Source: a virus
Taxonomy: Duplodnaviria; Caudoviricetes
Strand: one strand, 5' to 3'
DNA: 30,240 nucleotides
IMG/VR virus record: IMGVR_UViG_3300012940_000080
Coordinates: 1 to 30,240 of that record
Both the position numbers and the translations under genes were made by a program. Under the pieces are notes generated by a model, which saw only the letters and a list, made by a program, of their open reading frames with translations, did no database searches and was not told where the DNA came from. Positions 2 through 4,129 of this stretch are shown piece after piece (position 1 is the first letter of the stretch; every line of letters starts with the position of its first letter).

Positions 2-170
2 GCGTGCGGGCGTCAACGGCGCCCGGGCTAGCGAGGACCGGGGGGTCACGCCATTCCCCCAGCGATCGGACATGGGTCCTCGCAGTGCTGAGACCTCCGC
101 CGAAGGGTCGGGGCTGGCGGAACGAGCGGGGACCGAAGCCGCTGCTAGAACCCCTCCTGCGCCCGCACGC
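2..170 (+). ncRNA. Candidate structured RNA domain (multibranch, closed by an 11-bp helix)
   Basis: GCGTGCGGGCG (2-12) is the exact reverse complement of CGCCCGCACGC (160-170). Inner helices: GCGAGGACC 31-39/GGTCCTCGC 75-83, G-run 40-45/C-run 56-60, TCCGCC 96-101/GGCGGA 116-121, AGCGG 125-129/CCGCT 139-143. No credible CDS. May extend upstream of the window. Confidence 0.5.
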
Positions 171-176
171 CACTGA

Positions 177-311
177 CGGCTGATCGTTCAATGGACGGTC
201 TCGCTCACATCGGCTAGCGGTGGTGCACCACGGCAGCTAGCGACTTCCTGAGCAGGTCTAGGACACCCGCCATGGGGCAGGGAGATCCGGGTTCGAGTCC
301 CGGGAAGCCGA
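177..311 (+). ncRNA. Aberrant tRNA-like element (tRNA-Pro-like, TGG at anticodon position) with large D-loop insertion
   Basis: Perfect T-arm CCGGG-TTCGAGT-CCCGG (287-303). Acceptor CGGCT 177-181/AGCCG 306-310 followed by A311. T8 at 184, D-stem GTTC 186-189/GGAC 261-264, A14 and GG at 193-194. Canonical spacing to an anticodon arm at 266-282 that is only 3/5 paired. No encoded CCA. Confidence 0.6.
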
Positions 312-408
312 CGAACAACTGAATACCCGGAGCGTCCGAGGGGAAGCGGCGCCGGGCGGACTGGCCTCCCGCGGAGCGGGCCACCCTCAGAAGAGAGAAG
401 GAGAAGAC

Positions 409-600
409 GTGAGCAAGGTAGGACGAGGCCGCAGGTCGCCCGAAGAGCGGCTGGCCGCGCGCCAGCGCCGGGCCGAGGAGGCCACACCCAGCACGGTGTC
501 CCCGCGGGAGAAGCGAGCTCAGCAGCGGAAGCTCCTGAAGCAGCTCCGTGAGCACATGGCCGCAGCGCGCAAGGGCGAGACCGGTGACTCAGTCGACTGA
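409..600 (+). CDS. Small basic hypothetical protein (63 aa)
   Basis: GTG start after purine-rich RBS AGAGAAGGAGAAG; Arg/Lys-rich; phage-like codon usage. Confidence 0.7.
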   Translation: MSKVGRGRRSPEERLAARQRRAEEATPSTVSPREKRAQQRKLLKQLREHMAAARKGETGDSVD

Positions 601-2972: not shown

Positions 2973-3479
2973 ATGGCCGACCTCATCAACCACCCGCCGC
3001 ACTACACGTCCAACCCGTTCGGGCTCGAGACGATCGAGATCACTCGGCACTACAACTTCGACATCGGCAACGCGCTCAAGTACATCCTCCGGGCCGGGAG
3101 GAAGGGCCTCGGCGACTGGGCGGGCAAGGAGCTCACGCCGGTGGACGCGGCGGCCGCCAAGGTGGCTGATCTGCGGAAGGCCATCTGGTACCTGGAAGAC
3201 GAGATCCGAGCGACCCGTGACCAGTTCGCCGGCTACGACCTTGACGACGTCTACGGGGAGGACCAGCACGACGTGGAGCCGCTCCTCGACGGCGAGGCCG
3301 AGGCGATCCGCGCGTTCGTGCGGTCCTTCCCCGGCATGTTCGCTGAACACCCGGCCGAGGTCAAGCTCGGCAAGCATCGGGAGGTCCCCGTCCACTACGA
3401 CGACCGGCCCTGCGAGTGCGACATCTGCGTGCCGGTCGCCGAGTCGTACGAGAAAGTTGACACAGGTCCGCAGTCCTGA
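2973..3479 (+). CDS. DUF3310-family phage protein
   Basis: INHPPHY...ETIEI...NFDIGNALKYILRAGRKG...DLRKAIWYL signature; RBS AGGAGAG. Confidence 0.85.
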   Translation: MADLINHPPHYTSNPFGLETIEITRHYNFDIGNALKYILRAGRKGLGDWAGKELTPVDAAAAKVADLRKAIWYLEDEIRATRDQFAGYDLDDVYGEDQHDVEPLLDGEAEAIRAFVRSFPGMFAEHPAEVKLGKHREVPVHYDDRPCECDICVPVAESYEKVDTGPQS

Positions 3480-3526
3480 TACGATAGTCTCATCGGGTGG
3501 AGGTACCACCCCAGAGAAGGATGAAG
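3453..3526 (+). promoter_or_regulatory. SigA-like promoter plus 5' hairpin (copy 2)
   Basis: AAAG-TTGACA (3457-3462), 17-nt spacer, TGa-TACGAT (3480-3485); hairpin GGGTGG-AGGTA-CCACCC 3495-3511; leader AGAGAAGGATGAAG. Confidence 0.8.
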
Positions 3527-3529
3527 ATC

Positions 3530-4129
3530 ATGGACACCACCGCTCAGATCGCTGAGGCCGAGGCCAAGCTGGCCGAGCTCAAGGCCCAGGCCCGCAAGGA
3601 AGCCGCCGAGAAGCGCGCCGCCCAGCGCGAGGCCGCGACGACCGGCCCCGGCGAGGGACTCAACTTCGTCGCCCTCGACGGATCCACTCACCGCCGCGCC
3701 TACCTCCGCGCCGGGGACATCACCGTGCAGGTGATCCTCGCGAAGAACTCGTGGGAGCGCACCGAGCAGAAGAAGGCTCGCGTGTCGGTCTCCGGCGAGG
3801 TCGACGTCGACTTCACCGCCGCGTACGAGGCGGACCGCGCGGACGGCGGGCCCAAGCCCCGCGGCGAGCGGCCCGAGGTCGACAAGATGTTTGACCGCCT
3901 CAACCGCCAGGTGATCGCCAACAAGCGCGACGTCGTCAGCGAGGCTGTCGCATCCCTGCCCGAGCTCGCCACCCTGCTGGACGGCATCAAGCTCCACTTC
4001 TCCCGCACGGCCGGCTGCGCCTGCGGCTGCTCGCCGGCCTTCGTCGCCTCGCAGCACATCCGGGTCTCGGTCGACGGCCGCACCCGCAACGTGACCGACA
4101 TCTTCGTCTCGCGTGAGGTGGCGAAGTGA
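3530..4129 (+). CDS. Hypothetical protein with N-terminal coiled coil and FSRTAGCACGCSPAF cysteine motif
   Basis: ATG at 3530 after AGAAGGATGAAG, inside ORF 3497..4129. Confidence 0.8.
   Translation: MDTTAQIAEAEAKLAELKAQARKEAAEKRAAQREAATTGPGEGLNFVALDGSTHRRAYLRAGDITVQVILAKNSWERTEQKKARVSVSGEVDVDFTAAYEADRADGGPKPRGERPEVDKMFDRLNRQVIANKRDVVSEAVASLPELATLLDGIKLHFSRTAGCACGCSPAFVASQHIRVSVDGRTRNVTDIFVSREVAK

Follow-up and report, generated by a model that had tools for sequence, protein, structure and literature searches.

Does the gene-free start of this phage contig specify a single structured RNA, or do several elements merely lie side by side? The window analysed here, 30,240 bases long, is the entire contig of a soil actinobacterial tailed phage. 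Positions 2–390, in which a tRNA-like unit is embedded, were read in the original prediction as one multi-domain RNA, or as a ribozyme or switch that tRNA-type processing sets free.

Genomic context and folding of the region

The rightward arm of the window contains the terminase gene (4478) and the portal, capsid, tail and lysis genes, and the primase gene is read leftward. The closest named phage is Micrococcus phage Kurnik (67% identity in the capsid protein and 70% at the DNA level in the terminase–portal segment). Since the Kurnik genome is 56 kb long, with ~25 small rightward genes preceding the terminase, the window is probably a genome fragment. Contigs from relatives (runs X2, X11 and X14, see below) continue beyond position 1 for ~1760, ~1060 and ~195 bases, respectively, and position 1 is therefore an assembly break, not a genome end. 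The window holds no terminal repeat and the terminase gene is 4 kb away; the region is thus probably neither a genome end nor a packaging site. Elsewhere in the arm, gene 1553–2908 encodes an acidic protein of roughly 440 aa that has no Pfam or PHROG match, starts like a signal peptide and carries an LAYTG tail ahead of a hydrophobic end. This tail may be a sortase-type sorting signal; a protein bearing one is unusual for a phage.

The absence of a credible coding sequence was confirmed. Open reading frames 4–183 and 3–176 lack codon periodicity (GC content by codon position is 0.72/0.69/0.75 in the frames of the region vs 0.65/0.41/0.89 in the terminase gene) and relatives carry frame-breaking indels there; nor is the region the end of an upstream coding sequence.

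All five helices named in the original prediction are present: a long helix of 11 Watson-Crick pairs (2–12/160–170), an inner helix of nine pairs (31–39/75–83), an alternative hairpin of seven pairs including one G-U (8–14/18–24) and two downstream hairpins (326–330/352–356 and 362–366/379–383). The region as a whole is not unusually stable, positions 1–395 having a folding z-score of +0.88 against shuffled sequences. Values were −1.0 to −1.3 for 1–175 and 2–170 and +1.3 for 312–400, and among the pieces tested 177–311 alone reached −2.1. A perfect stem of at least 11 bp is not rare either: when the rest of the window was cut into 170 tiles of 175 bases, 5 of them contained one. When 1–405 is folded whole, the long helix has a probability of ~0.2 and the tRNA arms of at most 0.05. 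The original prediction assigned the region to no known family, and in the Rfam search, likewise, none reached its gathering score; at E values up to 10 the single weak match was to the mascRNA-menRNA model, via the T arm (E 0.28). ARAGORN called nothing in the region, and its low-threshold output was noise.

Three separable modules

The region was compared with contigs from six runs, X1, X2, X6, X11, X14 and X24, two of which (X11 and X24) are labelled as probably DNA. Positions 2–408 consist of three separable non-coding modules, all on the plus strand: A (2–171), a conserved block; B (177–311), a tRNA-Pro-type scaffold that was read by hand; and C (315–408), which starts where the match to X2 resumes. 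Between A and C lies an exchangeable slot (172–314, plus strand). A single X2 contig matches 1–171 with no substitution and three gap positions, has eight other bases in place of 172–314, and matches again from 315; between there and 898 there are 57 differences. X6 retains the whole region including B, with 6 differences in 1–405 and 48 in 406–769. In X11, positions 2–174 are matched with seven substitutions and unrelated sequence follows after 174; its loose end before position 2 reflects a difference at position 1 only and marks no 5' boundary. X14 matches 1–63 and 315–405, on separate contigs, and X24 yielded only a chance-like match of 36 bases. X1 is possibly the run from which the window itself derives. 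Close relatives keep both flanks but lack the tRNA-like unit or have other sequence in its stead; these alleles argue against one obligate RNA, and the idea of a single multi-domain molecule was not upheld.

Module C and transcription of the rightward arm

Module C opens with an A-rich 11-mer (315–325) that is unique in the window and ends with a purine-rich ribosome-binding site (~393–405). It is followed by gene 409 (409–600, plus strand), the first of the rightward arm, encoding a 63-aa protein of no family. C is likely the 5' leader of this gene. The two hairpins within C form with low probability when the whole region is folded (0.24 and 0.01); all 17 pattern matches obtained for C were unrelated, and blastn gave short matches only. 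The 11-mer may be half of a boxA-like rRNA-leader motif, which stands 170–200 bases before 16S rRNA in 3 of 7 actinobacterial loci and whose pattern occurs in 11 of 61 genomes. It resembles just the 3' part, the leading TTTG being missing, and for that reason a boxA role is a lead only. No match was found to the E. coli boxA consensus as given in the available part of PMC5725501.

A regex search located four promoter-like sites (1510, 3457, 26612 and 30115), in units spanning 1506–1585 and 3453–3520 on the plus strand and 26616–26540 and 30119–30035 on the minus strand. They form one TTGACA-type family (AAAGTTGACA, 17 bases, TA..T). A short hairpin and then a purine-rich ribosome-binding site lie downstream of each, an order also seen in C, and a GGAGGTACC motif follows three of the four. 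The same search found no consensus promoter between position 1 and 1510. As phage promoters are absent from 1–408, we infer that transcripts of gene 409 and those behind it probably start farther upstream and run through A.

Module A

Module A is closed by the helix 2–12/160–170 (11–12 bp), which stops just ahead of the slot, 6 bases before the 5' end of the tRNA-like unit; the true 5' limit of the module may lie upstream of the window. Substitutions are far scarcer in A than in the genes that follow: 0/171 vs 57/584 downstream in X2 (Fisher p 5e-7), 6/405 over the whole of 1–405 vs 48/364 in X6 (p 4e-11) and 7/173 vs 25/237 in X11 (p 0.016; two separate contigs), in tests that involve close, non-independent relatives and use coding DNA as the comparison stretch. 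The lack of any substitution in X2 indicates that A is under constraint, and its low divergence could in part result from recent recombination among close relatives.

When 1–176 is folded alone, the outer six pairs of the long helix have a probability of 0.99–1.0. The hairpin 8–14/18–24 had been described as mutually exclusive with this helix, which holds for the inner five pairs (0.65 against 0.35) and fails for the outer six. Neither alternative fold shows covariation, which speaks against the proposed switch. The inner helix 31–39/75–83 has a probability of 0.29, and its strand 75–83 has a second 9-bp partner at 126–134. Among the seven substitutions listed in A, changes close to contig ends being left aside, two are accommodated by G-U pairs, another leaves the pairing with its partner intact, one falls at an unpaired base and three are disruptive; no compensatory pair was found among these differences between close relatives. 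The disruptive ones are three of the five listed for X11 (G90A, G99U and G107A), each of which breaks the most probable predicted pairing.

We consider A likely to be a folded RNA domain with an RNA function. It is unlikely, though deserving of serious consideration, that A is instead conserved as DNA (as a replication origin, a protein-binding control site or a segment homogenised by recombination), its helices being a by-product of 70% GC content and B being the only RNA. The folding of A is at the level of shuffled sequences both as RNA and as DNA, compensatory changes are lacking, short repeats are present inside the module (31–40 and 126–135), and the corresponding start of the rightward arm in Kurnik is a promoter-bearing non-coding gap, all of which would suit a DNA element. 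However, both changes listed for X6 (C32U and A37G) retain the helix 31–39/75–83 as G-U pairs, in three alleles A stops at its closing helix, just where the cassette slot opens, and the lack of a promoter between A and gene 409 implies that A is probably transcribed. Taken as a folded RNA domain, A is so far confined to close relatives in our searches. The closing-helix pattern had two matches in IMG/VR, both due to chance; a 20-base pattern had eight in metagenomes, namely the record of the window itself (L078) and seven chance matches. Blastn against isolated phages produced no homologue, a Microbacterium match lying inside a gene. No homologue of A was found in five related records, and eight distant loci related by terminase all lack both A and B; a search for related loci by gene 3497–4129 returned none. 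Among 401 actinobacterial genomes only seven short partial matches were obtained (E 1e-4 to 1e-3). In one genome of the 401 (locus L132, ~1500–1545), a 42-base match to window 5–45 (83%, E 1e-4) has the 3' end of a tRNA on one side and the start of a gene on the other; it is probably due to chance.

Module B, a tRNA-Pro-shaped unit with a D-loop insertion

The scaffold of B comprises ~70 bases, with 65 more (195–259, plus strand) inserted after G18G19. With bacterial tRNA-Pro it shares the C1-G72 pair of the acceptor stem (177–181/306–310), A73 (311), U8, A14, G18G19, the 15:48 pair (A15:U48), a canonical T arm (287–303) and, in the anticodon-position loop, a GG on the 3' side; the D stem is formed by 186–189/261–264. 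G72 and A73 are among the bacterial Pro identity elements (PMC9976931, in part), and both are found in B together with the T-loop and D-loop elbow bases. B differs from bacterial tRNA-Pro in its D-loop insertion, its six-base variable loop and two basal mismatches in the acceptor stem, and the copy in the window encodes no CCA and is missed by ARAGORN and at the Rfam gathering score. The insertion consists of a basal stem (203–207/249–253), an invariant core (210–218/236–246; 9 and 11 bases, one bulged G) and a variable apical hairpin. The cloverleaf as drawn, with the apical hairpin open, has an energy of −35 kcal/mol vs a minimum of −59, and in the minimum-energy fold a local 8-bp hairpin takes the place of the D stem.

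The anticodon-position arm (266–282, plus strand) includes a bulged A and a loop of six bases (271–276). In decoding tRNAs the anticodon loop normally has seven bases (PMC7609411, in part), and the combination of a 5-bp anticodon stem with a seven-base loop does not occur here: the loop is six bases long in all three known copies of B and differs between them, X6 carrying a further change, G274A. Judged by this loop, B is probably a non-decoding tRNA mimic.

The family rests on two full copies and a partial one. A search with the insert pattern gave 28 matches, one of them a true homologue, with an E value of 1.6e-7 inside its locus, L056. This locus belongs to an unrelated actinophage whose packaging module differs. 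There the unit closes a tRNA cluster just ahead of the small terminase gene and ends in ACCA; the cluster runs tRNA-Asn, structured block, tRNA-Lys, YrlA-like module and B homologue. Compared with B, the homologue shows a double-sided change in the D stem and another in the T stem, and its anticodon-position stem is rebuilt; the core of the insert is identical and its ends and tip differ. The partial copy, from a second X1 contig, has three differences over 209–250, only 30-base loose ends being visible; with D and anticodon-position stems of its own, it represents a third scaffold. The six-base loop is common to all three.

Further searches for B added no member. A first pattern had 16 matches, 15 to tandem ordinary tRNAs and one to locus L013; two more pattern searches gave no match and eight matches, respectively, one of the eight being real and on the same contig. 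A covariance model (R1), applied to 19 records, 151 genomes and 21 sources, added nothing to the family, and in blastn against isolated phages only T arms matched. In the literature that we searched, outside which most subscription papers lie, no phage RNA of tRNA-like shape was described that has a hairpin inserted in its D-loop, and the three supplementary files of PMC10690425 that were examined contain no motif match.

It is improbable that B is a decayed tRNA-Pro gene, without function as a whole, into which a non-canonical intron or a small mobile hairpin has been inserted. The single insert position, after G18G19, and the gain and loss of B between relatives would fit such a history. However, the insert ends differ in all three copies and the centre is invariant, while the scaffold covaries and keeps its six-base loop, a combination that fits long joint selection. 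Moreover, removal of the insert still leaves a six-base anticodon loop, and the core was not found in 185,579 GTDB genomes, where none of 14 matches was real.

Several other elements, most of them tRNA-like, were noted alongside. In L056, immediately upstream of the B homologue, minus-strand positions 1664–1599 form a T-acceptor-D module like that of YrlA; they match model positions 23–85 only, at 36.7 bits (Rfam E 1e-5), which falls short of the gathering score. Two structured blocks of the same cluster (1878–1742 and 2215–1950, minus strand) had no Rfam match, and for the first no match in isolated phages was found. X11 sequence after position 174 begins like block 1878–1742, over the 30 bases visible; the two may draw on a shared cassette pool. 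Mycobacterium phage Megatron06 (L114–L120, ~38,200–43,200) has at least seven intergenic mini-tRNA-like repeats ahead of small genes, each with a short acceptor stem, a D-loop-like strand, a full T arm and the A-CGA that also follows B. They are unannotated where viewed, a like copy is present in Streptomyces phage Joe, and repeats of this type are possible RNase P processing signals. In Microbacterium phage Jacko, a tRNA-like gene that is missing from the annotation lies between two genes (L028, 1170–1240); its anticodon arm is shortened and has a six-base loop. Finally, a 343-kb phage has a tRNA-Pro-like gene with a long anticodon-arm insertion and no ARAGORN call (L013, minus strand 985–1116).

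Comparison with known RNA classes

Theta ribozymes, whose proposed role in gut phages is the removal of 3' trailers from tRNAs, adjoin a tRNA-like unit as A does; compared with those described in the accessible part of PMC10879173, A sits 5' of B and showed no HDV-like fold. A loose home-made descriptor of the nested double pseudoknot (P1-P2-P3-L3-P4, with C in J4/2), run without a positive control, gave no theta/HDV-like match on either strand of 1–430 (background: matches in 3 of 30 tiles), and no HDV-type match was found in Rfam. The hammerhead ribozyme core consists of CUGAnGA and GAAA. These motifs occur on neither strand, and a CUGAGA at 88 is altered in X11 (G90A). With neither an HDV/theta nor a hammerhead core found, the suggestion of a ribozyme received no support.

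Kinship with GOLLD, cited in the original prediction as a tRNA-associated phage RNA, found no backing in an Rfam match. The region resembles GOLLD and ROOL as a putative non-coding RNA next to tRNA genes in phages; no Rfam model of these classes matched the part of the region that lies inside the window, nor did evidence of an extensive covarying fold emerge. Many GOLLD RNAs exceed 800 bases, and tRNAs are sometimes found in their linker (bioRxiv 10.1101/2024.12.08.627333, in part).

YrlA and Yrn1 Y RNAs resemble B in combining a tRNA-shaped module with an extra helix of conserved sequence; they occur in actinobacterial phages, and the 'anticodon' loop of Yrn1 is likewise of six bases (PMC4201824, accessible part). 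In the YrlA model, however, the order is T arm, closed acceptor and D arm, whereas B has the order D–anticodon–T with open acceptor ends. The extra helix of B is located in the D-loop, and B lacks GNCGAAN0-1G, a motif that YrlA has near its 5' end; A contains it once (99–106), and in the window as a whole one strand has 51 occurrences and the other 56. B was not assigned to YrlA (RF02553): the module order is wrong, and 1–600 contains no YrlA match at E up to 10. A Ro60 (TROVE) gene, expected for YrlA within 4 kb and on the same strand, is not present among the eight genes downstream, to 4481, the only side covered.

mascRNA and menRNA are tRNA-like processing signals. By that likeness, the tRNA shape would set the 3' end of the upstream RNA; B differs in scoring far below gathering, and A is independent of B. 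M. smegmatis YrlA is cleaved by RNase P and then receives CCA (PMC4201824, same part), and by analogy tRNA-type processing of the present region is plausible.

Least probable of all, and to our mind very doubtful, is that tRNA-type processing frees 2–390 as a single molecule, be it a multi-domain RNA, a ribozyme or a switch: X6 has few changes in any of the three modules (6/405), 6 bases separate the end of A from the 5' end of the tRNA-like unit and, given the linker tRNAs of GOLLD (the same bioRxiv preprint, in part), A and C could be a single RNA with an optional insert, but B is dispensable in relatives, C is more diverged than A in X14 (7/91 vs 1/63, separate contigs) and contains a ribosome-binding site, stable A–C pairing is not predicted, and a ribozyme core and an Rfam match are both absent.

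Proposed model and implications

The reading that we prefer, and to which we would give about an even chance, is a three-module leader from which B is excised by host tRNA enzymes as a non-decoding RNA that displays a likely protein-binding hairpin. A long leader of the rightward operon would be transcribed from a promoter upstream of the window. RNase P would cut at 176/177, and 3' trimming at 311 followed by CCA addition would free B. B would then persist as a stable RNA that, through its invariant core, may sequester or anchor a protein of the host or the phage (as decoy or tether), and A would stay as a helix-closed RNA domain that works with or without B. C would start the message as the ordinary leader of gene 409. 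Phage tRNAs have been proposed to counter tRNA-targeting defences (PMC10264068, in part).

More tentatively, the elements described here might represent an undescribed actinophage family of tRNA-Pro-shaped RNAs that bear a D-loop hairpin, occupy a slot behind a 170-base RNA, itself undescribed, as a cassette and are matured by the host. It is conceivable, with the same reserve, that the hairpin, predicted to bind protein, is a Y-RNA-like tether or decoy of a new topology.

As a candidate RNA, module A is small and strongly constrained, and the natural alleles with and without B offer a ready comparison. If B is expressed, it would be a natural tRNA mimic whose elbow carries a long conserved hairpin and whose anticodon loop is disabled, an architecture that we did not find in our searches. 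The tRNA shape would then serve phages as a vehicle for a protein-binding module, a point relevant to the question of why they retain tRNA-like genes.
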